DNA of 64,000 nucleotides from Chiloscyllium plagiosum (taxonomy: Eukaryota). The stretch is from NCBI RefSeq assembly GCF_004010195.1, contig NC_057753.1, forward strand, positions 15,075,345 to 15,139,344. Reading direction: 5' to 3'. The first letter of the stretch is position 1. Every line of letters starts with the position of its first letter. A model generated the notes under the pieces. The model was not told the origin of the DNA. It saw nothing but the letters and a program-made list of their open reading frames with translations, and made no database searches. The position numbers were made by a program, and so were the translations under genes. This document shows, in pieces, positions 29,392 to 53,496 of this stretch.

Positions 29392-29424
29392 GCAGACTTG
29401 TCGACACTCAGGCCGTTAGCACAG
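29392..29424 (+). CDS. SRCR receptor gene, 33-nt microexon (GRLVDTQAVST)
   Basis: tttcag|...acag|gtaaat, phase 1-1; splice sites and length conserved in duplicate 37144-37176. Confidence 0.75.
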
Positions 29425-30310
29425 GTAAATGCATGTTATTATCATATGGAGTAGAATCGCGAAACTCTGGTGCCTCCATCCAAATACCAGGTCGTGGTGT
29501 TAATCTCCATGAATTAATTTTTATGTGTGAAGCAACTGTGGTTGCATAACTGAAGGGGGATGCATTACTCCCAAAGTTCTCTATTTTGAAGAATTCTGAA
29601 GGTGACAGTTTGAGCGCTGATCTCCCATTCACACTGCTGTTCTCAGGTAGTTAGTGAGTGACTGAGGATTCCTGCAGAGAAGGGTGTGAACGATCAGCTC
29701 CCACTTTTAATGCTGTTATCAGTTAGAGAGACAATGAACGGGGAGAGCGTGAAAAAATAACCCACAAACACAGTGCTGCCGTTGAAATCCCATTTTAATT
29801 AATTCAGTCACCGTTGAACAGTGGTATTGGTCTCACATGACCACAAAACCCACAATATTTCTGTCTATGTTAGGCGGGAGTACTGTTTCATTTTCTGATG
29901 CTGCCAGGCCGGGTCCATGGAGTTTTCTCACCAGTAAGTGCTGAGCACGACGGAAAGCAGATCATTCCTGACCCGCCCCTCTCGGCTTTCCTGTAGTTGA
30001 AATATTTTCTGAATGCTTGCCTGGATGGCTGCAGCTTCAACAATACAGAAGAAGCTTGACACTAGCCCTCGCTGAATTGGCACCAAATCCACAAATATCC
30101 AATCCATCCATCACCGATGCTCAGCAGCAGCAGAGTGAACCTTCGACAAGAGGCCCTGCTGAAATGCACCAATGCTCCTTGGTCAGCATCTGCTAAACAG
30201 TCGACTAATTCCATTGAAAGGACAAGGGACAACACATACCTGGGATAACCAAAACCGCCATCCAGTCTTGGAGATATATGGCTGATTCAGAATTCTCGAA
30301 TTCCCTCCCT

Positions 30311-30519
30311 GAGGAGAAAATGAGGTCTGCAGATGCTGGAGATCAGAGATGGAAATGTGTTGCTGGAGAAGCGCAGCAGGTCAGGCAGCATCTAGGGAAC
30401 ACGAGAATCGACGTTTCGGGCATTAGCCCTTCTTCAGGTTCCTAGGGAAACGTCGATTCTCCTGTTCCCTAGATGCTGCCTGACCTGCTGCGCTTCTCCA
30501 GCAACACATTTCCATCTCT
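30311..30519 (-). mobile_element. Young palindromic Penelope-derived element with TSD
   Basis: 73-bp inverted arms 30345-30417 / 30447-30519 with 1 mismatch; direct repeat ttccctccctgagg at 30301-30314 and 30519-30532; empty site in unit B near 37910. Confidence 0.88.
30410..30437 (-). ncRNA. Minimal hammerhead ribozyme core (PLE type)
   Basis: Minus strand CUGAAGA-A-GGGC-UAAU-GCCC-GAAA-C-GUC. Confidence 0.7.
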
Positions 30520-30935
30520 TCCCTCCCTGAGGGCATTGTGACTCTACTGACAGCACATGGACTGCAGTGGTTCAAGCAGGTAGCTCACCACCACCTACTG
30601 AAGGAGACGAAGTCGGATCAGAGATAAGTGCTGACTCAGGAAACGACTTCCATGTCCCATGAATGAATAATAAAAATATTAACACGATGTCGTGTTTAGA
30701 ATATTTGTTTCTTTGGAAACATTTCTCTGACCCTCGCGATCTGTGTGAATACCATCCAATTAAACGTCCCTTCCACGTTCACCATATGCTGTTCGTATTC
30801 TGAGTTATGTTGTTGCAGAGTGTAGGTGTGCCATCCCCTCACAGCCATTGCGTGGTGAATGGGGGATGTGAGCTGTGATAAGAGTTTTCATGTTTATAGG
30901 TTGTTATGTTTTCTTGCTATTCCTATATTTTGCAG

Positions 30936-31250
30936 AGTCGGTAAGGCTGAGACTTGAGAATGGGGGCAGTCCTTGTGCTGGTCGAGTGGGGATTCACTAC
31001 TTTTCGTTGTGGGGGACTGTGAATGATGCCGAATGGGACCTTCTGGATGCCTCTGTTGTTTGTCGGGAGCTGGACTGTGGGAGTGCGGTCTCTGCCCCAA
31101 GGCAGGCTTACTTTGGAGAAGGATCCGGACCCATTATGACCCGGAACGTTGAGTGCAATGGGACCGAGCGCTCTCTGCGGGACTGTCAATCAGTGAGATG
31201 GGCTCACTACTCCAGGTCACACTCCAATGATGCTGGTGTCATCTGTTCAG
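30936..31250 (+). CDS. SRCR domain exon 1 (6-Cys variant, unit A)
   Basis: tgcag| and |gtaaaa, 315 nt, phase 1-1; LRLENGGSPCAGRV..WGTV..DASVVCRELDCG..DAGVICS. Confidence 0.92.
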
Positions 31251-31821
31251 GTAAAAAAACGATTGCCGTTTCTGTGTAGTTGTATCACAACCCGGCACTA
31301 TGTGAATCCAGAAAAGAATACGACGACAGAACGACAGTTGTTCAACAACTAACAACATCATTATAACAGTACCACTGATTTATCCATTACAATTTTATAA
31401 CGAGTTCAATATTTGAAGATAATGTGACAAATGAGTACCTGTTGCTGTTTGCACTCCGGTGAAGCAGCAGGAACAGGTGTCCATTGTGTTGTCATTTGAA
31501 GCCACATTGAGAGAGCTGCACCGCTGGAACTATCACGTATACATCCCAACGTATCATGGAATTCGATATTGTGCTTGCCGGCAGAATCATTTTGCGTCAA
31601 TTATCCGCTGACTGAAAGTTTTTATCCCTCTATCAGACCAGCTGAGGCTCCGGTATCTGGTGGTGACTATAAACGAGGTCGACAGAGTACCAGACCCGCA
31701 TAGAATGATGGAACGTTTCATAAGCGAATGTGACAATCTGTCATTAATCAGATGAATGTTCATTAGTCATAATGTAATTATTGTTGTTGCAATTTGTATT
31801 GATTCAGTGATTTTTTTCCAG

Positions 31822-32136
31822 ACCACACCCTTCCCAGATTGGTACCTGGCAATTCACAATGCTTTGGAAGACTGGAGATCCAGTTCGGTGACACCTGGAA
31901 AACAGTGTGTGGTCTTGACTGGGATTTGAAAAACGCCAATGTGGTCTGTGTGCAACTTCATTGTGGGGTTGCCGTGTCTGTGTCAAGCTCTGCTTATTCG
32001 GGAGGCGGTAATGTGCTCATGGCTACTGAGGTCATTCAATGTACGGGAAATGAGACTCATCTGGAGAATTGCCCTCGGTCTACAGCCATTCACCAGGATT
32101 GCAGTGCACACAACAATGTCACCCTGATATGTTCAG
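31822..32136 (+). CDS. SRCR domain exon 2 (8 Cys, unit A)
   Basis: ttccag| and |gtgagt, 315 nt; PRLVPGNSQCFGRLE..WKTVC..ANVVCVQLHCG..VTLICS. Confidence 0.92.
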
Positions 32137-35100
32137 GTGAGTCCAGAGTCAATGAAATAAAAACGGGCTACTTTTCGCTTTAATATTTGTGGAAGTGATG
32201 GCGCAGGGCTTCCTGAATTAGTCAATCAGTGTCAAATCTAAACCAATCCTTCTGATTTCCAGTGTGATCATGCGCTAAATACAACGTGGTAAAATATACC
32301 CGCAACTATTGGAAATTAAGATGTTTCAAAATGTTTGCACTTGCATTGGAAAGAAATTTCTTCAAACTGTTTAACAGTCTGCACTCAACGTACGTTGTTG
32401 GCTGGATTGTCTGAAGGGAAATCATTTTGATAATAGTAAGCACAAATTAATATATACACATTGAAGTGAGTATCGGACAATTAAATTAATGTCAAGATTG
32501 AGGTCTTTTGCTTTTTCCTTTCATGCACCAAAAATAATTTTGAACAACGTTTCTAAACTGTTTGAAATTATTGAACATCACTCTCCCACAAGTTCTTCAG
32601 CAAGAATTTCCAGCTCACAATGCGTCATCGTCTGACATGTATCATCATGTTATTTGTTCCACCATTGTATTCTGAAGCTAACATGCGTCTTAAGGTGATC
32701 TATCTCGTCCCCTCACTTTTCACATTAATTTCCAGTTATCTTGACTGAATATCACGGTGTATTTTATAATAGTCTCCGTGTCATCAACTGAATCATTCAT
32801 TGTCATTCTAATGCAAGCACACTTCTTCCCCTCACCTTACTATTCATGCCCCTGACTTTTCCGATGATCAGTTTATGGCTCAATTATTTTTCTTCACCTG
32901 CCTTGATGGAGCCAATCACATTCTTGCATGACTGTGTCTGTGCCAGTGCGACTGCTTAAAAGCCAAACACATCTAGTCCAATACAACCTTGTCGAAAATA
33001 GAAACTTTTTTCATATTTCTGTTAGAGTTTCACTCATCTGCATCTCCTCAATGGCCATGACACAATTTGTGAATAACGTGTTGAACATAATTGTACACAA
33101 TGCTTTTATACCAGCCTCGGATAACTCGATAAAAGTCATCATAACGTCTCTGTTTCTGCAAAGAATAATTCCATTGACAACTTTAAGTTCATATTGCATT
33201 GCTGATTTCTCTGACAGGCACTCTATCAATTTCAACCATTTCCACTTTTGAAGCCCTTGGTCCTTCTGTCTGAACACACTTTTTCAAAACGTAGATGTTG
33301 AAGAAATAAAAAAAACTTTAAGTATATCTTCCAAGTAAGTTTCTAGGCTGCCAAAATGTATCCTGCCATCTTTCTTTGCCTTAAGTTCCACCCACCATTT
33401 GTCTATCCTTCTGCTGTCATTTGCATGCCCAACTAAAATTTGCAGCCGCCATGATTTGAACACATCAATGTCTGATTTCATGTGCTAATTTGCATTTCAA
33501 TACAAATTTGGGGCAGTCTATGCCCAACGCAAAAATCACTTATACACAGCTTGTTAACGACATCCTTAGTTTGTCATATAAGTTTTATAGAGGTTTAGTT
33601 TTCCGATTTTCTGGCGATTTTGCAGGACTGATTTACTTATCTTTCTCCAATAAATTTAATTGGTTGAAGGATAAAACGGAAACACATGAAGTAGAAGGGA
33701 GCACATATGTAGGAAAAAAAAAACAGAAGCTGGCTTGGAGATTGAAGCTTGTCATGGGGACAATTGCATATTTCAAACAGTATCTGATTCATTGTTCGGG
33801 CCTCCTGGGTTTCTTCATCGTTCTCTTTACTTCAGACTTCCAGCCTTCAGAGCATTTTTCCTTTCGTCTGGTGACTTAGTTGTTTTGATGCTTTTGTGCA
33901 CGGGTTTATATTGTTGTAGTAGACAATAGTTACAATGCAGAGAGAGAAATCGTCAAATCCTTAGAGGTTATTTAATTTGAAACCTTGAAGGAGAATTTGA
34001 AACTTCGAAGGAGACCTGAGTGAGGACCGATGCAAGACTAGTTTGTCATGGAAAGAAAAACAGTTGAAAAAAAAAGTTTCTGACTTTCCTTTTTGAACCT
34101 TCGTGACCAGGAGTGTTTCGTTGGAATTATGCAAATGATTAAAATGCTGAGCGTGTCTAATCTTTCACGAGACACAAGTAGTCCAGAAATAGACCTCTCA
34201 GTTCACAGAAAAGGAACTGAGAATAATCCACTACGAGAGGCCAGCAGATCTGTTAGAGAAGTAAAACTATTCTGGATCTGATTGTTTTCTATGTCATTTA
34301 TTTCATAGAATACTTTGCAATCTTTCTAAGTTGTGAAATAGGTAGACAAATTGACTTGTTCCATATAATATTTATTTATTCAGTAATGAGAACATTCTCG
34401 GATCAGATGACAAATAACGTCATGGTGAATTGCTTCATTCATTATGTTGTTGAAGTTGTTGTTGTTAGACAGTTGGAGAAGTGCATGAAGTATGAGCTTG
34501 GAAGTTGCATGAGCCATTTCAATATTCACTTCATACCGATGTTATGAACAACTGATTCCTTGACATGCGTTTGCTCTTTTATAAATGTAGTTATTCAAGG
34601 AAAGACAAATGGGAGAAACGTTTTGAGGAAGCAATGTTCAAGTGAAATTGTTCTCGTTTAGTGTGACTCGAATTCTTCATTACTGAAATTATTCCAGTAC
34701 TCGGGTAGATTTCAAAATCCATTCCGCAGGTTGTTTTATTATTAAAAAAATAACGAATATCAGACATATCATAACGTGAATATAATAGTTGACATCTACT
34801 TTGTTTTATTTCGTGTTCAAAGTTAATTCACGTTCAAAATTGACAACTGGTCTGCATTTCTGTCACTGTCAGTAATTTGTTTCTTTATAGTCTCCGTCAG
34901 GATTGACATTTGATGGCATTACGAAATTTCATTCAAACTGACGTTACATTTTTAAACCTAAATAAACGGTACAGTTAAATAAAAAGTTCCTGTCCCCATG
35001 TTTAGCTGAAGCAGACTGGAAATGGCCTTGCCATATTGTTAGTTATACTCATTCAGCAGGACGTCGGCAGTAATCTGCATAAGGATAAAATATTTCAGAG

Positions 35101-37143
35101 TAGAGCTTACTGATTACACTACTGTCAGCTCATTCCAATTTAAAATTATGTCCTGTGCAACGTTGCAATAGAATAATCATGTGAGGTAGCAAAGTTTAAA
35201 AAGTGTTCAAACGTTCATGCATGTTCTGAAACAACAAGAATTATTCCATAATAATATCCAATTTGGAGACGCAAACATAATTAGCTCAGTCGTGTCAGAT
35301 TGTACCAGTGCTGAAATCAGTTACTATGTTCAAAATAATGGCACTGAATAATGACATGTATTCATTCTATTCGAAAACTCTGCAGTTAGTGAGGAAACTC
35401 AAATGTCTAATATATCACTTTGAGGTCAACAGCTTATCTTTTGCAATACTATGCAGGGAGTCCCAAAAGATATTTAACACGTTTCGATATTTGTTTCTAC
35501 TAACTCAAAAGAGCTCTGCAATTTTAAGTATTTTGGTATATATGCAACAGTGTACGAAATAATAGTTTGAAATTCTCACAACCATAGTAATTGAGTAGTA
35601 TATTGTAAAACAGGTGATCCAGTGTGTGATTTAATGCAGTGAAAAGGGACAAGCTGAGAAATAGGAAATACTGAAATTTTCTTGGATGACAATATCCTAG
35701 TCCATGCGCCAGCTGGCAAGGCATTGCTACAGATTTTTGATCTTCATTTTCCGCGACTAACCACATTCTGAAAAAAAAAACAATGATTATTCAGCATAGA
35801 ATTGTTTCCGTGCTGTACATCTCTATGACTCTATGACTCTAATTGAAGTGACGTTGCTCACACATCTTAGCTGGTAAAAATGATTTGGTTACTTCGATGA
35901 ATGTAGGTTATTAGAGACGACGTGCAATGGGAACTGAGAAAATCAAATCTAGCACTGAGTTACCAACTGTGAACACATCTGACAGATGGCCTGTGCTGGT
36001 TAAATGCCTGAAAGCATAAATAACGTTGTTCAGAGATTGAAAATAAGGAATTCGAGGTTTATAGAATATTTAGCATTGGCATGGGAAAGAATTTGCAGAT
36101 AGCCAAAAATCATCAAAATAGCAACAATAAGTGTCAGTCATGAATAATATCTAATAGGACACACAATCGGAGAAGGTTAACTAAATTTAAATTTCAAAGA
36201 TGTTTCGATTCTTGCGTTTACTTGTGATAGGAGTCGAAGTTATTTTCAATGAACAGCATTAATAGAGTAGGCTCGGTAAACCCTTGGATTTTTACAAAGT
36301 GCGTTATGGGTTCGTCACCATCCTGCCCCCAGTGCAATTCAACGTGAGTAATACTTACTCAGAGCGACTTTTTGAGGGCAAAAAGGAAAGGGCATGGAAT
36401 TAATTAAGCAGTGTGTTAAAATAGGTAGCATCGAATCCTTGGACAGAATGACCTTCTTGCTTTGTTTTGACCACTGGAATTGTTTGTAGTCAGTTACATA
36501 TTGAACTCTCTCTCATGATCCATGTTAAAACCACATGTCCTAGATTTGGGGAAATTAAAAATTCCTATTAGACGTTATTCATGACTGTCACTTATTGCTG
36601 CTATTCAGGCAGGCAACAAAATAAAACCTAATCCTTAAGGTGCTAAATGCATCACTTGGAAAATAAAACCTTACATTCTGGATTTATTTGCTGACCCGTT
36701 ACTGTGAGTCGTTGTTTATTTCAGTTTTGTTGCTCGAGTAAAAATCTTAAACGTCTGCAAACTTTTTGATGGGGGCACTTTGCTTTGGCCACTCGGAAAT
36801 ATTAATGCTCTGTATGGGGATCATAACGATTTTGAGTAAGTCGGCAGCCAACACATGGATCACAAATAGGCTCACCAACGTCCCAATGCATCGGGTTGGC
36901 AGTGATTCTGCCTGTGTGCAATCTATTCAGTTACATTTCAGAAGATGTTTGACCTTATATGTTTGCTGCAGAAATGACATTTCCTGTTTCATGTGTATTG
37001 CTTGAAATTATGATTTCACAGTTCCAGATATCATGTATGTCGCCAATTAATGACATTTGTTAGCCTCACGTTATTGTTTTTTAAAGTTTGTTTCGAAGAG
37101 TTGCCTTGCATCCTGATACTTTATTTATATTCCTGTGTTTCAG

Positions 37144-37176
37144 GCAGACTTGACGACACTCAGACCAGTAGCACAG
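37144..37176 (+). CDS. 33-nt microexon, unit B (GRLDDTQTSST)
   Basis: tttcag|...acag|gtaatt, phase 1-1. Confidence 0.78.
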
Positions 37177-38319
37177 GTAATTGCATTTCAATATCACATG
37201 GAATAGCATCCCATTATTCTGGTCCAACCGTTCAATACGAAGGGGGATGCATTACTCCCAAAGGTCTTGATATCCTGGATTCTCCCACTCACACTCCTGT
37301 TCTCAGATACAGAGACAATGATTGGGGAAGAGTGTCAAAGCTCAGTTCCAAACACAATGCTGCTGTTGGAAACACATTCAAAGCATATCACTCACTTTGA
37401 GCAGACACATCAGTCTCAAATGACCACAAATCCCACAATATTTCTGGCTGTAACAGGCGAAATTACCGTTTCATTTTCTGATGTTCCCATGACGAGTTCT
37501 TGCTGTTTCCTTGCCAGTCATTGCTGAGCACCAAGGAAAGCAGACCATTTCTGGCTCGCCTCTCTTAACTTTCCTGAAGTTGATATATTTTCTGAACACT
37601 TGCCTGGATAGGTGCATCTTCAACAATATACAAGCATCTCGACATCAATTGGAAAAAAAAAGCAGCCCCACTTGATTGACACGACATCCTCTCCCTCCAA
37701 TGTTCACTCGCAGCAGTTTGCACCATCTACAAAAGGACCTGTGGAAGTTCACCAACGCCCCAGAGTCAGCACGTGCCAAGCACCCGACCACTTCCATCTA
37801 GAAGGGCAAGGGGTAGCAGGTACTTGGGATAACCACAACTTGCGGGTCTCCCGCTTAACTACACAACGTCCTATCTTGGAGATATATTGCTTGGCTAGAA
37901 TGCTAGAACACCCTCCATAATAAGATTGTGCCACTACCTACAGCAACTGGACAGCAGCGGTTCGAGAGGGCAGCTCACCCCCACCACCTTCTCAAGGAGG
38001 TGACTAGGGACACGTAATAAATGCTGACTCAGAAGTGACACCAATATCCCATGAATGAATAATCAATATTTTTATCACGTTGGCCCTTTGAGAGTAAATG
38101 TTTCAGTGGAAGCATTTCTCCGACCCTTGCTATCGTGACTGAGTACCAGTTATTAAAACGTCACATCCCCTTTCACGAAATACAGTTCGGCTTCTGACGT
38201 ATTTATGACAGAGTGCATTTGTTGCACCCCCTCACAGTCATTGCATGGTGAACGGTGAATCCAGACTGGGTTGGGAGTTTTCATGTTTAAACCTTAATTG
38301 CTATTTCTGTGCTTTGCAG

Positions 38320-38634
38320 AGGCGCTGAGTCTGAGACTTGAGAATGGGGGCAATCCTTGCTCTGGTCGAGTGGAGATTCACTACGATGGTCTGTGGGGGT
38401 CTGTGCATGATCGTAACTGGGACTTGCGAGATGCTGCTGTGGTGTGTCGGGAGCTAGACTGCGGAACCGCGGTCTCTGCCCCGCGTGGGTCTCACTTTGG
38501 ACCAGGATCCGGACCCATTGTGACTGGAAATATTTGGTGCAGCGGGACTGAGCGCTCTCTGCGGGACTGCGCATCATGGGAATGGAAGCATTACTTCAAT
38601 TCACAATCCAATGATGCTGGTGTCATTTGTTCAG
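38320..38634 (+). CDS. SRCR domain exon 3 (6-Cys variant, paralogue of exon 1)
   Basis: ttgcag| and |gtagaa, 315 nt, open frame. Confidence 0.93.
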
Positions 38635-39181
38635 GTAGAAATCTGTTCTTGTTTCTGTGTCGTTGCATCAGAATGCGGCATTGTCTGAAATAAGAAAGGG
38701 ATATGACAGCAGAACTGCAAGTGTTGAATAACTGTTAACCCCATTATAATCGCATCACTAATTTATTCAGTATAAATTGCAAATTGTGTGGATATTTGAA
38801 GGTAATGGGAGAGGTGAGTACTGTTACTAATTACCGTCCCTTGAAGGGTCAGGACAGGTGTCCATTGTGATGTCACTTGAATCCATATTGAGAGAGCTGC
38901 ACCGCTGGAACTGTCGCATTTACAACCCAATGTATAATGAGATTCAGCATGGTGTTGGCTGGCAGTATCACTTTGTAAAGTTTATCTGTAGGCTGAAAGT
39001 TGCTTTCCTTTGGATCAGCTGAGGGGAAGGAATCTGGGGGTGAACATACATGATGTCGACAGGGCACCAAACCGATATAGAGTGATGGAATGTCTCACAC
39101 ACGAATCTGTCATCAATCAGCCGAATATTCATTAGGCAATAATTTCAAATAATTTGTTATGATTCGGTGATTTTTTTTCAG

Positions 39182-39490
39182 AGCAAGTCATGTTAGTACC
39201 TGAAAATTCCCAATGCTTTGGCAGACTGGAGGTACAGTTCGGTGACACCTGGAGAACAGTGTGTGGTCTTGACTGGGGTTTGGAAAATGCCAACGTGGTC
39301 TGTGCACAGCTTCATTGTGGAGTGGCTGTATCTGTTTCAAGCTTTGTTCATTCTGGAGCCAGTTCTGTGCTCACGGGTACGAAGGTCTTTGAATGTACAG
39401 GCAGTGAGACTCAACTGGGGAATTGCCCTCGCTCTTCAACAACTCACCACGATTGCCGTGGACACAACAACGTCACCCTGATATGTTCCG
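39182..39490 (+). CDS. SRCR domain exon 4 (paralogue of exon 2)
   Basis: tttcag| and |gtgagc, 309 nt, open frame, 8 Cys. Confidence 0.93.
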
Positions 39491-41347
39491 GTGAGCACAG
39501 ACCCTTAGTGGAAAAAATAACACATTTCATTGTAATGTTGGTGAAAGTGATGGCGTTGGATTATCTGGAATTGCTGTATAAGTGTCAAATTATACTAATC
39601 CTGACGATTTCCAAAGTAGTCACGCATTAAGTGCAATGAAGTAAAATATCCACGCAATTATCAGACGTTAAGCTGTTTTGAAATGCATACACTTGTATGG
39701 GAAAAGAAATTTCTACATGTTTGTAAACTGTCTGCACTCAACATATTAAATTGTCTAGATTGTCTAAAAGTAGATCATTAGCGTAATGGTAAGCACAAGT
39801 TAACATAGGGTTGTTGAAGTGAATATCGGACAATTAAATTCATGTGAAGCCATTCATAATTTTGGCCTTCGAGGACCCAGCAATACTATTGAAGAAAGTT
39901 TACAAACTATTTCAAACAATTAAACTTCACTCCTTCCAACAAATGCTTCAGCAAGCATTTCCAGTTCACAATACCTCGTCGTCTTACATGTGTCGTCATG
40001 GTCATTTGTTCCACCATCGTATTGTGAACCTAACATTAAGTCAGAATGCGATCCTTTTCGTTGCATTACATTGCACGTTGCTTTGAATTTATCTTGCTTA
40101 ATATCAATGTATTTTTTGAAATAGTGTTCAGTTGTCCGAATCAATATGATTCCAATGCATGCCACACCTCTTGTTCGAGAATTTAACATTTCTGCCCACC
40201 ATTCTTCCGACGATCAGCTAATGCAATCAGTTTCTTTTTCTTCACCTGCCTTGTTCAAGCAAATCATATTCTCGTGTACGTTTATCTGCGCCACCACCAT
40301 ATTTCAACGAAAGCCACAATTGGTTAAATATACCCTTGTCGAAAATACTTGCATCTTCAAAAGTAGTGCATCTTCAATTCCCTAAGGACCATGGCACAGT
40401 TTGTGAATTACGTGTTACACATACTTTTACACAATGCTTTTCTATTGGCCTAACGATCACTGGGCAGCAATCACCATAAAGTCTCTGCTTCTGCACTATT
40501 TAACACTACTTACAAGTTTAGGTTTAAGTTGCATTGCTCATTGCTCTGCAAAATATTTTACAAACTTCAAGCAGCTCAGCTTTTAAAGCACGAGGCTTTT
40601 CTTCCTATGTGTGCGTATTCAAAATCTCAATCGAGAAAAATTGAATGTATGTTTCACGTCATTTTCCCGACTGCTAAACTGTAACCCCTCACACTTCTTT
40701 GCATTAAGTTCCATCTGTTATTTGTCTATCCGTTCTGCTATCCTTTGCATTCCCCACTAAAATTAGCAGCTCCAATAATTAATGGTTTGAACACATCAAA
40801 CTCTAATATCGTGAACTACTGTTCAAATGTTGCTTTGCATCTTAAATGCAGAGTTGAGAAAGACCATGTCCCATGTTTAAAAAAAACACAAATGCACAGC
40901 TTTTTATTGATGTCCTTAAAATAACATGTAATTTTCCAAGACCTCTTTCTTTCGATTTTTGACGAGTTTTCACAATTTATTTACTTACCTTTCTTGAATA
41001 AATTTAATTGTTTGAAGCGAAATTACGTAACACAAGAGGCGTAAGGGAACACAAGCTTAAAGCATCGTATCTGCATGCTGAGAAAAGATGACAGTGGATT
41101 CGATTGGACAATAAATTATCGACTCTGGGGCAGTTGCATATTAGATCCAGCATCTGATGGACTGGTCTGGGTTTTGTCAACTGGATGCTCTGCATCTGTT
41201 ACCACAAAATGCCTTTCAACATTTTAGATATCTCATTTGTCTCAAGCTAATAAATTCCTTTGTTGCCAACTTTTTATTAAATTTTCTTCATAAAGTAAAT
41301 ATTGATACCTATGCCATCCTATTCACACTGTGCTGCAGCATCCCTCA

Positions 41348-42138: not shown

Positions 42139-42453
42139 GAAACCATGGACCCCGGTTGGTTGGTGGGGAGAACAGGTGCTCTGGGCGAGTGGAGGTCCTG
42201 CATGGAGAGCAATGGGGAACGCTGTGTGGTGATTACTTTGGCATACGAACCGCCAGAGTGGTCTGTGAACACCTTCAATGTGGGACTGTCAGGTCGATCC
42301 CCAGAGATGATCGATTTGGGAGGGGAGCCGGAACACTGTGGATGGAGAAGTATAATTGCCGTGGAAACGCGAGACGATTGTGGGACTGTCCAATCTCACA
42401 GGGGGAGAGGGTCAACTGTTCCCAGGGAAATGTCGCCAATGTCATCTGCTCGG
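42139..42453 (+). CDS. SRCR domain exon 5 (alternative in-frame donor at 42462)
   Basis: aacag| acceptor; PRLVGGENRCSGRVEVLHGEQWGTLC..ANVICS; donors g|gtgtgt (42453) or g|gtaagt (42462). Confidence 0.92.
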
Positions 42454-43395
42454 GTGTGTCTGGTAAGTCTGGCAGATGTCCTCCGTGAAGGAAAATGATT
42501 GTCCAGATGGGTTTTTTGGACAATTGATGTTGGTTTCCACGTCACCGTTACTTAGAATACACTTCATGCCGAGATTATTCACTTACTTTGAACACCATCA
42601 GCGGTCATTCCGAAATGTAAAAATAAAAAGACAATCTTTCTAAACGTCACATTGCATCGTTTTATTAAACAAAGTGCCATGTTTACTTGGCACAACGATG
42701 TTCTGTGGTATGACAGTGGTTTTTTCGACCTTAATGTGTCTTAAATCCACACTTTTTTCCGAAATTCTGAAGCTTTCACAAATACCATCTGAGACGACAA
42801 GCAATTATCGTCATCTTTGCATGTATCTAGACCATCCTTCAAACGTCAAATCTCTCTCCCTCTCCAAAGATGTTTCCAGACTCATTGGATTCCTCGAGAA
42901 CATTCTATGACTGCTTCTGAGGTGGTGAGGGAATCCGAGTGACAAATGCTCTGACACATTGCAGCATTTTGGGGGAAGTTTGCAACATCGGAACAGACAT
43001 GACAAAAACAAAGAAGTTGAGATCATTACGTGGAATTCTCACTAATGTTTCCTGCGGCAAAATATAGCCAGTCTGCAGTGATATATTGGGAATAATCAGT
43101 GGGCTTTTCAATTCTCTGCTTCTGAATTTCATTGCATCACTTCCCACCAACCATAATGGAACTTTCACTGGCCATTTCACTTCCCCATCACTTCAGATTA
43201 ACGGGATTTGCTTCTCCAGACCTTTCCCAGTTGTTTGGAAGGGAATGGTGATGACAATAACTGCAACTTTCTGCAAATCTGTTGGAGACGCCATCAGGAA
43301 TGATTTTTTAACATCATAAATTTTCCTTTGATTGATATTTCTCGAATGTACCTTATGCACTTTAATGACTGTTCTAAATTAATCTCATGTTTCAG

Positions 43396-43713
43396 ATGAA
43401 AGTTGGTCACCAAGACTGGTAAATGGGAGAAACCGCTGTGATGGCCAAGTTGAGGTTTACTACAATGGAAGTTGGGGCAGAGTGCAGGACTCCCTGTGGG
43501 ATCTGAATGCTGCTCATGTTGTGTGCAGACAGCTGGGTTGCGGTTATGCCTTAGAAACGCATAACTCTTCATACTACGCGGTGAGTGATGAACGTCCGTG
43601 CGTGCATAGTATCCAGTGTCATGGACAGGAATCACAGCTCCGGGATTGCAGCATTTCCAACCCTTTGAGCTCGTCTGTCACTGACAGCGGTGCCGTTGGC
43701 ATCCTCTGTTCAG
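43396..43713 (+). CDS. SRCR domain exon 6 (lacks C2/C7)
   Basis: ttcag| and |gtgaga, 318 nt; PRLVNGRNRCDGQVEVYYNGSWGRVQD..AAHVVCRQLGCG..VGILCS. Confidence 0.92.
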
Positions 43714-43901: not shown

Positions 43902-44219
43902 AACATATCCAGTTAAGGCTGTCAGATGGAGGAACCCGTTGTGCTGGTCGATTGGAAATTTACTACAAAGGGACATGGGGATCAGTTTGTGATGACTCCT
44001 GGGATGTGAGAGACGCTGAAGTGGTTTGTAAACAACTGGATTGTGGAGGTGCACTGGAAAGGGCACTTCCTTCCTCCTGCGGACCGGGCACAGGGCCAGT
44101 TTGGTTGAAAGATGTGAACTGTTCTGGAAACGAATCATTTCTCTGGGAATGCCCTTCAGCACCATTCGGTCAGCAAGACGACTGTTCTCATAAAGAGGAC
44201 GTAAGAATAATGTGCTCAG
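43902..44219 (+). CDS. SRCR domain exon 7
   Basis: aacag| and |gtgaga, 318 nt; LRLSDGGTRCAGRLEIYYKGTWGSVCDDSWD..DCSHKEDVRIMCS. Confidence 0.95.
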
Positions 44220-44269
44220 GTGAGAACACTCTCAATGTTGTTCGTGACATACTATGTTATCAACAAAGC

Positions 44270-46002
44270 TTCATGTGAATGTTTGTATAGTGAATTAGGG
44301 AGTATTTACAGCAGTGACGGCAATTGAATGCCTATGCTGCACCGAGTTCAGTGTTTACTGTGGAGAAGGACATGAAAGATATAGAATGTGGAGAAATGGA
44401 TGATGACATTTTGAAAAATGTTCATTTTACAGTGGAGGAGAAACTGAATGTTTTGAATCATATAAAAATGGAGAAATCACCAAGACCTGATCAGGTGTAC
44501 CATAGAACTCTGTGAGAAGCTAGGGGTGTGATTGCTGGACCCCTTGCTGAGATATTCTATATCATTGACAGTCATAGGTGAGGTGCTGGAAGACTGGAGG
44601 TTGGCTACCGTGGTGCCACTATTTAAGAAAGGTGGAAAGGAAAAGCCAGAGAACTAGAGACCGGTGAGCCTGATGTTGGTACTCGGCAAGATGTTGGAGG
44701 GAATCCTGAGGAACGGGATTTACATGTATTTGGAAAGGCAAGAATTCATTAGGGATAGTTAGCATGGCTTTGTGCATGGTAATTGATGTCTCACGAAATT
44801 GATTGAGTTTGTTGAAGAAGTAACAAAGAGGATTGCTGAGGGCAAAGCGGTAGACGTGATCTTTATCGATTTATGTAAGGTGTTCGACAAGGTTTACCAT
44901 GGGTGGTTCATTAGCCAGGTTAGATCTCATAAAGTACAAGGAGAACTAGCCATTTGGATGCAGAACTGGCTCGAAGGTAGAAGACAGAGGGTTGTGGTGG
45001 AATGTTGCTTTTCAAATTGGAGGCCTGTGACCAGCGATGTGCCATAAGGATCGGTGTTGGGTCCACTAACTTGTGTCATTTACAAAAATGGTTTGGATAT
45101 GTACATAAGAGGTATAGTTAGCAAGTTTGCAGATGACACCAAAATTGAGTTGTAGTGGACAGCAGAGCAGGTTGCTTCAGATTACAATGGGATCTTGATC
45201 AGATTTGCCAATGGGCTGCAGATTGGCAGCTGGATTTTAATTCAGATAAATGTGAGCTTCTGTATTTTGGAAAAACAAATCAAACATGACTTATACAGTT
45301 TGTGGTAAGATCCTGGTGAGTGTTGCGAAACAAAGAAACCTTAGAGTGTTGGTTCACAGTTCCTTGAAAAAAAAAGTCACACGTAGATAGGATAGAGAGG
45401 AAGACGTTTGGTATGAATTCCTTTATTTGGTCAGTGCATTGACTATAGAGTTGGGAGGCCATATTGCGACTGCACATGACATTGGTTCGGCCACGTTTGG
45501 AATATTGCATTTAATTTTTATCTCCTACCTATGGTAGGATGTGTAAAAGTTGGAAGAGTTCAGAAAAGATTAACAAGGATGTTGTCAAAGTTGAAAGAAT
45601 GAGCTTTCGAGAGGGGAATAATAGTTTCCGTCTGCTTTCTCTGAAGCGTTCGACGATGAAGAGTGACCTTATAAAGGATTTTTAAAATCATGAGGGGCAT
45701 GGATGGGATTTTCCCTGGGGTTAGGAAGTCCAGTTTAGGGTGACGGGGAAAGATATAAAAGGAACCCAAAGGACAACTTTTTCACACAGATACATGAATG
45801 AAATGCGCTGCCAAAGGAAGTAATGGAGGCTGGTGTAATTGCAGCATTTAAAATAAATCAGGATGGGTATATGAATAGGAAAGTTTTCGAGGGATATGGC
45901 CGAGTTTTGGCAAATGGGACTAGATTAGATGAGAATAACAGATTACCATAGACGAGTTGGACAGAAGGTCTGTTTCTATGCTGGACATCTCTGTGACTCT
46001 CG
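44270..46002 (+). mobile_element. Intronic CR1 LINE, 5' truncated ORF2 and 3' tail
   Basis: KSPRPDQVY, FDKVYHG, WLEGRRQRVVVE, aagtttgcagatgacacc (KFADDT); many stops. Confidence 0.92.
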
Positions 46003-46327
46003 GACTGGATTCGTAATATACAGTATTTCCATGCATATAGTTCTCCATTTAATATGTCATCATAAGGTTCAAATGTGTTATTGATGGGCCATGGTCAATA
46101 ATCTGGGTGAAGTGAATATTTTCCAGAATGTCTGAAAGTATTTAGATGTAAAAGATTATTACTTATGATCTCAAGTTTTGTACCCAACGGCTGGAAATTT
46201 CATTCCCTTCTGTGTCTCTCGGTCTCTCTGAGGCTAAAACTCCGAAGGAATCCTTATTGCAACGAGTGTCTGTTCTCTTCCTAATTTCTGTCAGATTTCA
46301 CCACATTACATTTAACGGAATTAAAGT

Positions 46328-46640: not shown

Positions 46641-47124
46641 ATTTCATCACACATTGAACACCCATACTGCCCATTTATTACGATGTATTTGTCTTTTTCC
46701 TGATCTTCCTGAACCGTAACCACACTCCATAATTTGTTGCCAATCAGAACGTTTGGAATTGGCTTGGGTTAGCAAATCCAAATTGTTTCCTGCAATATTA
46801 CATAGCCACGAGACCTGCCCGAGTTTCAGCAGATCACTTCCCCTCTTCTGCAAATCTGACAACCTACTTCGGCCACAGACTTTCGGTTTACTGTCAATTT
46901 CTTATCTCCACAATTTTACATAATCAATCGTTTCAAGATTCTACTAGCACATTGTTAAACGTCTTTTCAAATTCCACGAACAATGCATCTTCTGCCTTGC
47001 TTCTAGTTTATTTGTCCTCGTGTACTATGTTAATTTATGACACTTGAGTTGTATATTAGAGTCATTGTCACGTACGGATGACATAAACTATCTGTCAATA
47101 TGGCTATCTGTTATTATAAAACAG

Positions 47125-47442
47125 AACACAAGGAGATGCGGCTGGTGAATGGAAAGCATCGGTGTGAGGGGAGAGTGGAAGTGTTCTACAATGAGGCCTG
47201 GGGGACGGTGTGCTCGGAAAGTCTGGACTTCCACGATGGGGAAGTGATTTGTAAACAATTGCAGTGCGGTGCTCTCCAGTCCATTGATTATTACACTCAG
47301 TTATTCGGAGCAGGAACGGGACCTATTTGGCTCGATGACGTGGAGTGCCTGTCACACGAGCCGACCCTGTGGCAATGTAAGAGAAATCCGTGGGGTCAAC
47401 ACAACTGCGAACACAGGGAAGATGCTGGTGTCGTTTGTTCAG
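47125..47442 (+). CDS. SRCR domain exon 8
   Basis: aacag| and |gtaacg, 318 nt; MRLVNGKHRCEGRVEVFYNEAWGTVC..GPIWLDDVEC..WGQHNCEHREDAGVVCS. Confidence 0.95.
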
Positions 47443-47523
47443 GTAACGCAACAAATCCCAAACTTCAGATGTCATTTCAAACACCGAGTTGCAGTATAGT
47501 CCACATGTTTCTCCTCTTTACAG

Positions 47524-47580
47524 AGAACAATGTAACAAAGGAGCAGTCCCTCAGTTCAAATTCCTGCCATCAGCAATCAG
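47524..47580 (+). CDS. Inter-domain linker exon (ENNVTKEQSLSSNSCHQQS)
   Basis: ctctttacag| and |gtaggt, 57 nt, phase 1-1. Confidence 0.82.
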
Positions 47581-47663
47581 GTAGGTCCTCATGAATGTGT
47601 CAACTCTCGGAATGGCGTTTCTGCTTTGTCATGCTTTCAGTAATAACCAGTTCTTTATCACAG

Positions 47664-47981
47664 ATTCGCAACACAGCGTGAGCCTGGTTGGAGGAAGCAG
47701 CAACTGTTCTGGGAGAGTGGAAATCCTGTGCGGAAAAGGCTGGGGAACGTTGTGTGGTGATTCCTGGGATACAACTGATGCCAATGTTGTCTGCAGACAG
47801 CTGGGATGTGGCTTTGCTGTTACGGCCAGAGGAGGGCCCACTGTTTCTCAGGTTAAAGGCGTTACCTGGCAGAATGATGTGAAGTGTAAGGGAAGCGAAT
47901 CCTCCCTATACGACTGTCTCTCCCTGGAACAAATGCAAAGCGAGTGCAATCACAAGGAAATTGCCAGTGTGATCTGTTCTG
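47664..47981 (+). CDS. SRCR domain exon 9 (membrane proximal)
   Basis: cacag| and |gtaagc, 318 nt; SLVGGSSNCSGRVEILCGKGWGTLCGDSWD..ECNHKEIASVICS. Confidence 0.94.
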
Positions 47982-48099
47982 GTAAGCATGATGCTAACTT
48001 TTCTCCAATCACTCATCATTAATTTTGCAATCTCGCGCTGGCATTTGTCCTCCTGAATAAAATATCAAATTCACGAATATTTGTATATGTCTTCCACAG

Positions 48100-48141
48100 G
48101 ACCCGATTTGTTGCTGACATCGCCTTCGCCTCCACCTGCTG
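48100..48141 (+). CDS. Pro/Ser/Thr stalk exon (GPDLLLTSPSPPPA)
   Basis: cttccacag| and |gtattt, 42 nt, phase 1-1. Confidence 0.8.
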
Positions 48142-48323
48142 GTATTTATGATTGATAATGTCATTAATATTTGTGTTTTAAAGTTCCTGCCTAATGGCAT
48201 TGATACTCATGGCATTTTCGCGATTTTAACTGTTAGGTCAGTATTTTCTGATGTGCGGACTCAATACAGTTATACAAAGCAGATGGTAACTCAGCTAAAT
48301 CTTTCTGTGATCTTTTCTTGAAG

Positions 48324-48443
48324 GACAGGCAAGTACATCTATTTCCATACCAGTCGTCATCTGCTTAACCTTGGGATTCCTGTTAATCTGTGATTTAATC
48401 GTTGTAATGCTCGTTGTAATGCAGAGAAAATTTCAAATGAAAG
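48324..48443 (+). CDS. Transmembrane exon (GQASTSISIPVVICLTLGFLLICDLIVVMLVVMQRKFQMK)
   Basis: ttcttgaag| and |gtgagc, 120 nt; hydrophobic helix followed by a basic stop-transfer QRKFQMK; not in the ORF track. Confidence 0.88.
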
Positions 48444-49966
48444 GTGAGCCTCACATTTCCCGACTGAGCTAACACTACACCTCTGCTCTTTTTCCATGCT
48501 GTGTCGGAGTTGTAGATTGATGTTGCACTTTCCCATCACTTCGCTTTGATCGTGATGACTGTGAGGCCGTTTCTGGCTTTTTCTTTCCTCTTGAAACGCC
48601 TCATTTAAATTGATGCAAAGAAAGAACACTAAACTACTGCAAATCGGACTTAAAAGAAAATCAGAAATGCATTAAACATACATTGGTCTCTCAATACCTG
48701 TGGAGAGCAACAGAATTAACCTACAATACAATTTTCGTCCCAAATCATTATCAACGAGCAAGAAATGTGAAGACTGAATATCTCTTATCTTTTATTAATC
48801 TACACATGGCACTCCAGAAAAAGTTATTAACTATAACAGTGTGCCTTTAATATTATTGAAGCATTGGCCCTCTGCCGCTAATTAGTTATTCCTCAGTTAG
48901 TCTTTCTTTACAGTTCCTCACTTTCATGGTGCTGATGCCAGAATTCAAGATCAGCGAAAGGATTAAATGCACTTCTCAGTCATCATTTGACTGGGTGCCC
49001 TTGAGACACCTGTTCACATTTGATACGGATTTCAAGAATTTGTCTTCCACAGGGTGGCGATGGAGATTAACACAAATTTTGTAATATATTGTAAAGGACA
49101 AATGCTGGAGTTCACAACGGGTCAGAAAATGTCCATGCAGCTCTGCTGAAGAGTCATCTAGCTTGCTGTCTCTCCAAGGATGATATCAGACCAGCGTGAT
49201 CTACAGCATTTGCTGTTCTCATTGCAGATTGCAGCATCTGCAGGAATTTGCTTCTACAAATTATATAACACTTTAGTTTCTGCATGTTTTGCATTATCTT
49301 AAATTCAAGTTACATCCAGCCATCAAAGGTGTAAACTTCTTTTCTGGCTATAAATGGCAATAAGCTTCTCCAAATTTCATGTGTCTCACGTTTTTGTATT
49401 CAACTAATATTAACAACTAGACAATTGTCTCGTTACAATATTCAAATTCGAAAAACATCGTAGCATTCGATGTTTTTTTTCAGCTCTGTCATCTTGAACA
49501 TTGATGTGCAACTGCCTCACAGTCATCAAGGCTTTTTTCTTTTGTCGAGAAATAAAAAAAAGAACATTTTTCCTTATCATTGTGTTAAGCAGTTTCAGTT
49601 ACAACTGTCACCATTATACCTCACACTGTGAGCTGATAATTTTTTGAATAAGTATTTGCATCTAGAAGGGGTCATTCGTGATTCGAACACAACGGACCAT
49701 ATACATCCCAAAAAGCAACATTTCGCACTCACTGATCAAGATAAAAAGTTTTTGTATACCGATGAGAAATGACTATTAATCATGGCCTATTCACTTGCTT
49801 GTCCAAATTGGTGCTACCCTCAATAATCTGACAATCCTGTGCGAAGACTTTGTCCGGGAATTCACTAACTACAAGTGTTTTGTTCTAACATTGCTCCAGA
49901 AATAAAGTCCCGATTGTTGCGTGAGTCCAGCTCCTAATGCTGACCTGCCTATCCCTCCTTCAACAG

Positions 49967-50074
49967 ACCGTTACACGCGTGGCAAAGGCTCCAATCTTGA
50001 TTTGTACCAAGGAATTTATGAAGAAATTGAGGACATTTCCCGTGGCAAGAAGCCCTCTGAGATACATGAAGCCG
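49967..50074 (+). CDS. Cytoplasmic exon 1 (DRYTRGKGSNLDLYQGIYEEIEDISRGKKPSEIHEA)
   Basis: ccttcaacag| and |gtactg, 108 nt, phase 1-1; homologous to 3431-3541. Confidence 0.87.
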
Positions 50075-51033
50075 GTACTGTATGCATTTCCAATCCCGCA
50101 GTGACTCATAACTGGATAGGTTCAGCTTCCCTTTAATTTCCAGTCTTCAATGATACGTGAACAAATTGAACATGACTAGTTTTAAAAACATTATCGTCGT
50201 GTGAAAGCAGCTATCATAGGGAATGTGTCTTTGTCTGTGTTTATTGACAGACATATTTGTTGTTTTATATTTGTCATTGTCCTTAATTGCGGCAAGAAGA
50301 ACATTCCAGATATTTATAATTAAATACGAACAGAATGACCATTTCCAATTAGACCCTGATTCCAAACTGAATCTATCAGGTATCTGAACCTGTGACTAAT
50401 CAGTCTATTCGCCGATTCACTGAACAACAATATAATCATAGTCATTACTGTCAGTTACACATAACTCATCTTGGAAGGATACTTAACGAATTAATATGGA
50501 CAGTCACCAAAGTAGCATCAGTGCAACCAGAAGTCGGTTGGCTCAATTTGTCAGCACAAATTCGAATACTTGATGCTGATTCGCCTGCCTTTGCCAGTGT
50601 CTCTGAATACAACTTGTATTCAAATAATCATCAATTGCCCACTTGAACCGGTGTAAAAGAATAATCAAAAGGGAATTTTAACTTTTACATGGTTACTTCA
50701 CTGATACTGTGAGAAAGGTAGTGCTGATGAGGACCGAGTAAAATCAGATAGTCCTTAGAATTTAGGTTACCACTGGAGACTTCGATCTTCCTCTTAGGAT
50801 CATGGTGATACAAGAAAGAAGGAATATTACATGATCATATTTGAAATGATTGACTATGCTTCCAACCGAGAATAATGCTGAAAAGTTATGAATCGAAGCA
50901 TTCTCAAAGAATGGCATGTAACAATAAGCAAAAATGCGGAAATGACATTTAATAGATTCAACAAATGCACATTGTGTCACCGAATTAAGAACACTTAAAA
51001 GCGAATCACACGCAAAGATGTTTTTTAAAAAAA

Positions 51034-51196
51034 TTAGATTAGATTACTTACAATATGGAAACAGGCCCTTCGGCCCAACAGGTCCACACCAACCCGCCGA
51101 AGCGCAACCCACCCAGACCCATTTCCCCACATTTACCACTTCACCGGACACTACGGGCAATTTAGCATGGCCAACTCACCTAATTTTTTTTTGGAC
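51034..51196 (-). mobile_element. HE1-like SINE 3' half
   Basis: ttagattagattacttacaatatggaaacaggcccttcggccc.. Confidence 0.85.
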
Positions 51197-51833
51197 TTTG
51201 TTTTGGTTGTTTGGAGACTGAAAGCAATCTATTCACCTTCTCACATACTTTGACCTAATTGTGGATATTGAGAATTAAGTAATTGAACACAATGTTTCCA
51301 AAAATGTTTGTCTGATGTTAGGATAAATGTTTGTTTCTAGCATGTCATTGCAGTTATATTGAAGTTGAGTAAAGTTCCGTTGAACTACTGCAATATGTGC
51401 ATTGAATGCTTTTCTATAAGTGGTTGCACTGAAAATATTCCAGCGATTATTACAGAGAAGATGAAGGGATTATGCTTTCGACTTCGTTGGTCCAGTTAAG
51501 ACTATAAGTGACGAATCCATAAACTAATAGACTAAGCGATTTTGGAGCCAAATCAGGACATTCGGCCACTCCAGTTCGCTTTTTATCGAACATAGCTAAC
51601 AGGTTTCTCAACCCCTTTCTCCTGAATTCTCCCAGATTCCCCTTTACTCACGCAGAACCCATTTATTGCTTCGTTCCTACAGTCAAAAACATGGCAACCA
51701 GAGCTCTTTGAGTTAATGAGTTCTACAGAACCACCACCATGTGGCTGAAGAAAATTTGTCTGATTACATTTCTAATGGGTCGTGCCTTCACTTTGACATG
51801 AAACCCGACAATAACTCTCCTTTTTCGTTTTTG

Positions 51834-51947
51834 TAAATTTTGCTTCCTTTGATTCGCTCAATCGCTTCGAATTCTACACCAACCATAGCTTGAATGACAA
51901 TAATCCGGCATCAGTAAATCTTGAGGTGAACGCCAATAGTATTTCGG
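51834..51947 (+). other. Cytoplasmic exon 2 homologue with mutated acceptor (TG instead of AG)
   Basis: Open 114-nt homologue of 5015-5128 (NFASFDSLNRFEFYTNHSLNDNNPASVNLEVNANSIS) preceded by tttttg rather than ag. Confidence 0.7.
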
Positions 51948-53029
51948 GTGTGCATGCGTTCAGTTTCTATCAGTTCAATTTTGTCCTTCTCTCTCTCTCT
52001 CTCTCTCTGCGTCCAAACATAAAGATGTCAATGTTCACAAGGCTGAGAATGACTCTGCTCCCATAACTGTTACATGAGCAATGTTAATTAAAAAGAATGT
52101 TGTTGGTTTGGAGTCATCGAGACATGGCCCATTGAGTCGTGCCTAACTATTCTAATCCCATATACGATCACGTGGTTCATTGCCCTATATGGCCTGACAT
52201 CGCAACAATACCACTGAGTACTTGTGAAATATTACCAGCATCTTTTGCCTCTAACACCCTGATGGTAAATGAATCCCAGATTCTCACCAAGTTCCAGGCG
52301 AAAGCAATTTTCCTCAACCCTCTAATTCTTCCTTCCCTTCCTTGAAATCGATGCACCTGATCTTTGATCTCACCTTCTGAAGAGAAAAAAAACATTACTG
52401 TCTACATATGTCCTTTGTAATTTCTCATCAACCCCTCAGTTTCCTCAGCTCGATGGAAACAAATAGGAAAATGAGGGACAAGAGCAAGCCATTCAACCAC
52501 AAAAACTTGTTCTGACGTTAAGTGAGATCATGGTTGGCTGATGTGTGGTCCACATACAGATACCTGCCTTTGGCACATAGCCCTTATTGATTTTGTTGGA
52601 CAAAGAATATAATGTGTCTCATATTTAGGATTGACATTGGATCTGAATCAGCTGCTTTGAGAGGAAGACAATTCCAATTCCCCCCTAGCCTTTCTTCTTC
52701 GTGATGCCTCAAGAACTACCTCTCTTAAAAGCATAGATTATGACCGTGAGATCTAGAATCTCCAGCAATTGCAGATAGTTCATCCTTATCTATTAGTTTT
52801 TTGATAGTTTTAATGCCTTCAATATTCTGCTTAGCTTTCTAATTTAGAGAGAAAGCAGACCAAATTTGCTGTTGATCTCTGCACTTGCCTCGAGCGCTGA
52901 GCTCCTTTAAACCATCCATCTCCTCGAATTCCACATTCCAGCACTAATGTTATATTCCAGCACGAATGTCATTTTCGTGCTCTTGGTGTTATGTGTTGCA
53001 ATGAGTGATAATCATTCGTTTCCCTCAAG

Positions 53030-53145
53030 ATCGAATTCTTGGTAGTTGCAAAGACATTGACACTGAATCTCAGGATGGTCAGTCACAATTGGACAGCGAT
53101 CCCGATGAATCCTTCGCACTAACAAATGCTGAGAATGGTCTTTGA
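53030..53145 (+). CDS. Cytoplasmic exon 3 to stop (DRILGSCKDIDTESQDGQSQLDSDPDESFALTNAENGL*)
   Basis: tccctcaag| acceptor; homologous to 6396-6529; TGA 53143-53145 just before donor g|gtgagt at 53152. Confidence 0.68.
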
Positions 53146-53496
53146 TCACTCGGTGAGTTGAATTACAGTTACTCACATATTTACCACCGCTCTGTGTGTC
53201 CATACTGTCTTCATTCATTTCCATCTTGATCGATATTGAATTTACTGTAAATCTACAAACAAGATTGAAAGCTATCAAAACCTTATCTCAACAAACTGTC
53301 TCTGAGAAAGTGTTGTGTTCCTGGAGAGGATCTGAATTACAAAACCATGGAGAATTAACTTATTTTAACTTATGAAATACTTTGATATTGGGCAGATACT
53401 GCGTTTTGTTAGCTCATTGAATGGCAAACACTATCCTCAACCCACTGATTAGATTGAAAGTCAATAAAAGTGCTGTTTGCAATGAATCAGTGAGTG

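Follow-up and report, generated by a model that had tools for sequence, protein, structure and literature searches.

The window analysed in this study is a 64,000-nucleotide stretch of the Chiloscyllium plagiosum genome (NC_057753.1, positions 15,075,345 to 15,139,344, forward strand), and the gene considered here encodes a membrane protein with nine SRCR domains. A preliminary description had placed a shark WC1/CD163-like receptor gene at 29392..53152. This span missed the signal exon at 21648-21693, 7.7 kb upstream, and the last exon at 56211. In a six-frame scan of the window, SRCR motifs were confined to the plus strand between 31 and 48 kb. Exon boundaries were set from the sequence (AG/GT ends, lengths divisible by 3, phase 1-1), and the signal-peptide exon was traced via relatives with intact N-termini. 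The features are listed below, one per line, in window coordinates.

21648..21693, + strand: exon 1, coding part, ATG and signal peptide (MFGTLLNVLALQLLN); 4 other copies precede paralogs
29392..29424, + strand: exon 2 (micro1), a 33-nt second leader exon
30936..31250, + strand: SRCR D1, N-terminal type, 6 Cys, without C2 and C7
31822..32136, + strand: SRCR D2, b/c superclade
25907..41053, + strand: old internal tandem duplication (micro-D1-D2)
37144..37176, + strand: micro2, duplicated leader exon, in frame
38320..38634, + strand: SRCR D3, 6 Cys, copy of D1 (70% identical)
39182..39490, + strand: SRCR D4, copy of D2 (72% identical)
42139..42453, + strand: SRCR D5, b/c superclade; alternative in-frame donor at 42462
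43396..43713, + strand: SRCR D6, domain n clade (99/98)
43902..44219, + strand: SRCR D7, d by position and FastTree; near-invariant in close paralogs
47125..47442, + strand: SRCR D8, domain e clade (80/96)
47524..47580, + strand: inter-domain linker exon
47664..47981, + strand: SRCR D9, d' by position (weak tree support)
48100..48141, + strand: stalk exon, Ser/Pro-rich
48324..48443, + strand: transmembrane exon
49967..50074, + strand: tail exon T1, YQGIYEEI
51834..51947, + strand: tail exon T2, EFYT motif; frame open, acceptor lost, likely skipped
53030..53152, + strand: tail exon T3, which has lost its YDD motif and carries a TGA in frame, 7 nt ahead of the donor
56211..56736, + strand: last exon, GKC-stop in paralogs, then 3' untranslated region to AATAAA near 56731 (end inferred)
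3407..6545, + strand: orphan tail exons (T1-T3) from a paralog, broken by a stop codon in T2 and a shifted frame in T3

Fifteen exons (micro1, D1, D2, micro2, D3-D8, linker, D9, stalk, transmembrane and T1) span 29392-50074, all with AG/GT ends and open phase 1-1 frames. The Pfam SRCR family PF00530 was passed by 9/9 domain exons (75.8-115.2 bits, cut-off 26.1), and the boundaries together with these matches confirm the nine SRCR exons, linker, stalk, transmembrane segment and YQGIYEEI tail described before. With 6-9 cysteines per SRCR domain and one exon for each, the gene falls into group B of the SRCR superfamily. The single transmembrane helix has a hydropathy of 2.86, no second segment exceeds 1.6, and the joined protein carries 11 N-glycosylation sequons. 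When T2 is skipped, the frame from the ATG to the stop in T3 is open and encodes 1131 amino acids. Signal peptide, one transmembrane helix and tail, with no CUB or ZP exon from D9 to the tail, uphold the earlier view of a membrane receptor as opposed to a secreted DMBT1-like protein.

The previously noted micro exons are real and in frame, and can now be identified as second leader exons: the first completes the leader and the other was duplicated with D1-D2. The doubled block is 7.7 kb long, its halves (25907-33705 and 33799-41053) share 67-71% nucleotide identity, and the signal exon lies outside it; the structure is therefore that of one gene with a doubled tip. A two-gene reading was rejected, as no second signal exon was found ahead of micro2. 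Both repeats are constrained (D1/D3: dN 0.23, dS 0.39; D2/D4: dN 0.15, dS 0.39). A structure prediction of D1 by AlphaFold without an alignment reached a predicted local distance difference test score of 46.5 and was not used.

Domain phylogeny was reconstructed by IQ-TREE from 108 domains and 104 columns, with bootstrap values that had not fully settled; FastTree used 226 of 377 domains and the approximately unbiased (AU) test a set of 42, redundant proteins and partial domains being excluded. D6 grouped with n-position domains of turtle, bird, lungfish, frog and milkfish (99/98), where the label n was assigned by position from the available part of PMC2906472 in a tree without mammalian SCART. 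D8 fell within the e clade (80/96), and D2, D4 and D5 within a b+c superclade (100/99). D1 and D3 formed a group (97/99) with a lungfish domain and further shark first domains, nested in an N-terminal-type clade (96/99), while d (0.96) and d' (0.63) were separated by FastTree alone. DMBT1 domains stood outside every clade holding window domains, and the k clade of CD163A/L1 (100/93) contained none of the gene's domains. Per-domain phylogeny, the check suggested in the preliminary description, placed D6, D8 and D2/D4/D5 in the n, e and b+c clades, respectively, and no domain in the k clade.

The cytoplasmic tail is divided among four exons, the last of which would contribute three residues only. 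According to the available part of PMC2906472, the motif Y-(Q/E)-(D/C/E)-(I/L) is common to WC1 and CD163c-alpha, and CD163A has YREM; in the present gene the WC1 motif is found as YEEI in T1. In the six-frame scan, tail exons with YEEI were found at 50.0 kb and 3.5 kb. A six-frame search of the window for the motif pattern returned 6 matches, 3 of them outside these two tail exons, so the YEEI motif by itself is no evidence; what counts is the conserved setting of the exon around it. Tails of shark, turtle, mole, squirrel and camel showed the motifs in the order Y[EQ]EI, YYT, YDD. A profile built from nine shark tails was searched against 180 tails, with 900 shuffles as control. At E<=0.001 it matched 32 of the 180, including 16 non-chondrichthyan tails (8 turtle, camel WC1, 3 deer, mole, 2 birds and coelacanth), all 16 of which are WC1-like or unnamed CD163-family models. 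The lowest E among the shuffles was 0.2 and the camel WC1 tail reached 1e-5; the CD163A/L1 tails P0069, P0081, P0113 and P0029 gave no match at E<=1. A genome search with the tail exon yielded 5 matches, the query being too short for counting genes.

Two lesions mark this tail, and the earlier statement that all exons are GT-AG, phase 1-1 and open holds for the 15 exons at 29392-50074 and fails at T2 and T3. The T2 acceptor reads TG, where AG is present in 7/7 other copies, and AG is absent from the 84 nt upstream of T2. T2 is likely skipped, and the T1-T3 join keeps the reading frame. T3 contains an in-frame TGA, six codons early, at the position of a Cys in the Chiloscyllium punctatum model P0100; the YDD motif is gone from T3 here and from the C. 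punctatum model alike. That the lesions are not assembly errors receives weak support from DNA run X1, in which a contig covers the T2 acceptor: at least five differences are listed, those five lie elsewhere, and none is listed at the TGA.

The gene belongs to an array on contig C44 (14.96-15.22 Mb) of six genes or fragments in tandem together with orphan tail exons. Among the six, one has stops and two are interrupted by gaps; the two complete neighbours of the gene have seven domains, and further copies occur on unplaced contigs. Mean pairwise dN/dS peaked in the N-terminal domain (0.64, 7 copies) and was lowest for d (0.27, 7 copies), as calculated from few and related sequences after excluding domains with stops, gaps or fewer than 95 residues and pairs more than 97% identical. 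Like WC1, the gene belongs to a multigene array with a most variable first domain, here by dN/dS; for bovine WC1, the available part of PMC2681482 gives domain 1 as the most variable and domain 9 as the least. The best database matches to D7 were carpet-shark models (98-99%), and D7 and D8 match four models from two further carpet sharks at 98-99% identity. Compared with contig C99385, DNA identity was 99.4% for D7, 97.5% for D8, 86% for D9 and 63-84% for the flanking introns, a pattern that suggests exon-limited homogenisation (gene conversion) or very strong constraint. A second array on contig C13 (59.86-60.45 Mb) holds at least 8 divergent CD163-family genes with n-d-e-d'-transmembrane order and a VYEEI tail; a scan of all 226 open reading frames (ORFs) in its flanks gave one claudin-family match (in L136). 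Contig C42 (12.730-12.747 Mb) carries a single C44-type gene with intact YEEI and YYT exons, in which a short half-domain exon follows the first domain.

The CD163-family features e, d', b/c and d are all present, as is a linker exon between D8 and D9, and we conclude that the gene very probably encodes a WC1/SCART-type membrane protein of the CD163 family. The WC1/CD163 likeness of the preliminary description is thereby borne out, and domain n, the tail profile and the multigene array narrow it to the WC1/SCART branch. In the available part of PMC2906472, the diagnostic domains are a for WC1, m, l and n for CD163c-alpha/SCART and k for CD163A/b, and chicken hybrids carry both a and n. The gene is not WC1 in the strict sense, since domain order and the n domain do not agree with it, and it belongs with the WC1/SCART-type hybrids. 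The former term "WC1 analogue" understates the relation, as domain types and tail motifs look homologous to those of WC1/SCART receptors.

The closest known counterparts are the WC1/CD163c-alpha hybrids of birds and turtles, such as chicken CD163_1 and CD163_8 (Herzig et al. 2010, PMC2906472, available part; models P0078 and P0119). They share with the shark gene a first-type N-terminal domain, b/c domains, the n-d-e-d' cassette, the e-d' linker, a transmembrane segment, a YEEI...YYT...YDD tail and tandem arrays, and in bird model P0078 the nine-domain order is identical. In contrast, their first domains have 8 Cys against 6, the shark copy has an extra upstream tyrosine (YQGI), has lost YDD and probably T2, and b and c are not told apart in the shark. 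Ruminant WC1 resembles the gene in having one exon per domain, a multigene array, a 6-Cys first domain without C2/C7, constraint lowest on the first domain and highest on d, and a YEEL/YEEI tail spread over several exons; however, it has 11 domains in the order a-b-c-d-e-d-b-c-d-e-d', without n, whereas the shark gene has n and nine domains in another order. The chromosomal neighbours of WC1 (bovine chromosome 5; PMC2906472, available part) also differ from those in the shark. Mammalian CD163c-alpha/SCART1-2 (m-l-b-c-n-d-e-d') have the n-d-e-d' cassette and the Y-E-x-I tail motif, but number 1-2 genes in eutherians where the shark has arrays. CD163A (M130) likewise has nine group-B SRCR domains with b/c, d, e and d' types and a transmembrane segment, but it differs from the shark gene in its h-i-j-k domains, absence of n, short YREM tail and single copy. 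DMBT1 is secreted, with near-identical SRCR repeats, CUB and ZP; the shark gene has a transmembrane segment, a tail and distinct domain types.

Automatic annotation already lists such shark models under misleading names. RefSeq models from carpet sharks are called "DMBT1-like", "M130-like" and "antigen WC1.1-like" (P0100, XP_072410632.1; P0070, XP_060677683.1; P0089, XP_060677690.1); their D7 and D8 are 97-99% identical, they have the same duplicated N-terminal pair, and by sequence they are probable orthologs or sister paralogs. These names are automatic only, the true signal exon is missing, and some models fuse neighbours. No account of shark WC1/SCART genes was found in the literature searched, which lies outside subscription papers.

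An importin-4 (IPO4) exon was identified just upstream of the array (E 5.8e-24) and PIP4P1 between the gene and the next copy; 300 of the 343 ORFs in the array flanks were scanned, yielding IPO4, PIP4P1 and transposon matches. In the whale shark, the contigs of a PIP4P1 model and of an SRCR model with 81% identity to D7 have the same length (11,734,621), which points to the same linkage there. Farther upstream on contig C44, variable (V) exons lie at 12.4-14.5 Mb; 14 were translated from 16 stretches, and 9/14 bear recombination signal sequences (RSS) with 22/23 bp. They are followed by 6 joining (J) segments, a constant (C) exon of the C1 set at 14.569 Mb, and 24 J with 12-bp RSS reaching 14.694 Mb. 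A V array, few J, C and many J is the layout of the alpha/delta locus of the T-cell receptor (TCR), and from this layout we infer a V-J-C-J locus organised like TCR alpha/delta. In a search of the PDB, the C exon matched immunoglobulin heavy chains and the V exons antibody constructs as well as TCR alpha/delta chains, which is not decisive; the Pfam TCR-alpha constant family gave no match, with a control equally silent. DAD1 was located on an unplaced contig. The first SRCR gene follows the last J by about 0.26 Mb and the studied gene by about 0.40 Mb, the latter lying about 0.53 Mb after the C exon. Human 14q11.2-q12 carries IPO4, PIP4P1 and TRA/TRD, and this shared location argues that the scaffold join is right. 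Of 402 ORFs at the contig end and in the stretch from the J cluster to the array, 299 were scanned, and these matched only retroelements and one SCAN fragment.

The linkage of an SRCR array with TCR genes was not described in that same literature. PMC12227049 describes the shark antigen-receptor complex, and the available text and two supplements hold no SRCR terms. The accession of epaulette-shark UrIg2 (XP_060677870) is numerically near those of epaulette SRCR models (XP_060677683-691), a weak hint only. Chicken WC1/CD163-like genes lie on the chromosome that bears the major histocompatibility complex (MHC), as stated in the available part of PMC4988538.

Taken together, we lean slightly towards a type I membrane group-B SRCR receptor of the WC1/SCART branch that would act as a pattern-recognition co-receptor on lymphocytes. 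Phosphorylated YEEI is a ligand of Src SH2 domains. The available part of PMC8356672 reports that WC1 binds bacteria via its SRCR domains and, once Src-family kinases have phosphorylated its tail tyrosines, uses these to amplify TCR signals, and in that of PMC9276791 an M130-like gene of cod is a marker of a T-cell subcluster that has putative tcrg and tcrd. Because of the homology, the shark protein is likely to work like WC1, each functional step being extrapolated. The variable six-cysteine N-terminal domains (D1, D3) would bind microbial ligands, and the near-invariant d-e pair (D7-D8) might act as a scaffold or keep to one unchanging partner. If the protein clustered with an antigen receptor, YQGIYEEI would become open to phosphorylation by Src-family kinases and could then dock SH2 proteins and strengthen the cell response; this copy would signal via a shortened tail, with T2 likely skipped, YDD lost and the last 6 residues cut. 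By analogy with WC1, a lymphocyte co-receptor role considered on its own has about an even chance, and one specifically on gamma-delta T cells may be proposed tentatively, with some doubt. This copy is fairly likely to be expressed as protein.

Several findings weigh against this reading. The T2 acceptor loss and premature TGA, neither of which is in the C. punctatum model, could be early decay, and other array members have stops or broken tails. No read or contig of three RNA runs fell on any exon in the region 46700-57000 (X5, from about 2% of the run, gave only repeats, X6 nothing and X7 repeats), although this comparison, of low depth, unknown tissue and without the 5' half, is no test of silence. 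Sheep WC1 tails reached just E 0.86 in the tail-profile search, IQ-TREE did not separate d and d', and, in identity, domain e diverges as much as the N-terminal domain does (65% and 66%). D1 is not assignable to WC1 domain a, since the AU test gave p 0.445 when it was grouped with WC1 a and 0.311 with CD163 h-k; D1 lacks C2 and C7 as does sheep WC1 domain 1, bird and turtle first domains have 8 Cys, and the common 6-Cys state may be convergent. At the V-J-C-J locus C-alpha and D segments were not found. The distance from J to the array rests on scaffolding because 31 N gaps separate the last J from the first SRCR gene. Moreover, the C13 array lies away from the TCR locus, so linkage does not hold for the family in its entirety.

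Other explanations were weighed on the same evidence. Yxx-hydrophobic is the endocytosis consensus, and since YQGI and YEEI both fit it, the protein might be a myeloid scavenger or endocytic receptor like CD163A, using its tail tyrosines as internalisation signals in macrophages or granulocytes; nine domains as in CD163A and a D1 inseparable from CD163 h-k by the AU test would agree with this. Such a role is nevertheless unlikely, for the gene has an n domain and no k domain, the tail profile misses CD163A/L1 and matches WC1-like tails, and the genes are multi-copy and diversifying, not single-copy. The name "DMBT1-like" of the closest database proteins could be taken at face value to indicate a secreted agglutinin, a view that is largely refuted and exceedingly improbable: transmembrane and tail exons are kept in paralogs, the nine domains are of different types, not near-identical repeats, DMBT1 domains fall outside the clades with window domains, and CUB or ZP families are listed for none of these relatives.

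Two further possibilities concern this copy more than the family. It might be a young pseudogene or weak allele in a birth-and-death array whose function resides in other paralogs, as the tail lesions, the RNA runs without reads on exons and the neighbours with stops and orphan tails would allow. We regard this as improbable, because the 16 exons that run from the ATG to T1 all remain undamaged, skipping of T2 needs just the frame-keeping T1-T3 join, D7 and D8 remain 98-99% identical to the four models of two other carpet sharks, and the TGA costs 6 residues and sits 7 nt ahead of the last junction. Under the 50-nt rule, decay is not expected for a stop this near the last junction. The product might also have seven domains, with one micro-D1-D2 repeat skipped or the repeats used alternately; both complete C44 neighbours have seven, phase 1-1 exons allow skipping in frame, and WC1 transcripts are widely alternatively spliced (PMC2681482, available part). 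This is very unlikely, given constraint on both repeats, a single signal exon upstream, and automated Hemiscyllium and C. punctatum models that keep both repeats in one protein, and as isoform variation it would be compatible with the favoured lymphocyte co-receptor.

A broader reading, rather unlikely as a whole, is that jawed vertebrates have had a WC1/SCART gamma-delta co-receptor system from their origin, and that it belonged to the antigen-receptor complex proper. The shark array beside TCR alpha/delta may then be expressed on gamma-delta (or NARTCR) T-cell subsets, with variable microbe-binding tips, a homogenised d-e pair and paralog-specific tyrosine tails, and in the chicken the SRCR cluster of the MHC chromosome would be another relic of the linkage. 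The available part of PMC2906472 follows WC1-type receptors back to birds and monotremes, and the same domain cassette and tail are now found in sharks, in arrays. The position by a TCR alpha/delta-like locus and the IPO4-PIP4P1 block, the part that specialists would notice, makes the array a candidate T-cell co-receptor family for the shark antigen-receptor complex. Its genes are candidate surface markers for shark T-cell subsets, and the exon models permit a direct check of gamma-delta T cells in existing shark single-cell data; in one shark single-cell paper (PMC11372145), the available text lacks relevant terms and the supplements a relevant row.

Some minor observations were also made. 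In the orphan tail exons at window 3407-6545, GC follows T1 where other copies have a GT donor, and further orphan paralog tail exons lie on the minus strand of stretches L023-L024. A 3' untranslated block including AATAAA is duplicated in the window (55948-56890 and 59757-60700, 69% identity). Decayed reverse-transcriptase fragments of long interspersed elements occur at window 11400-13800 and 44380-45900, and introns of the gene hold several copies of short interspersed elements. Elsewhere on contig C44, two more SRCR exons, with stops, lie at 3.70-3.84 Mb, and a cluster of immunoglobulin C1-set exons (10 among the 150 matches listed) at the far end, 0.57-1.36 Mb. Stretch L081 (C44, about 14.717-14.724 Mb) contains a retroviral remnant with separate ORFs for zinc knuckle, protease, RNase H and integrase, the last with a C-terminal domain of murine leukaemia virus (MLV) type.

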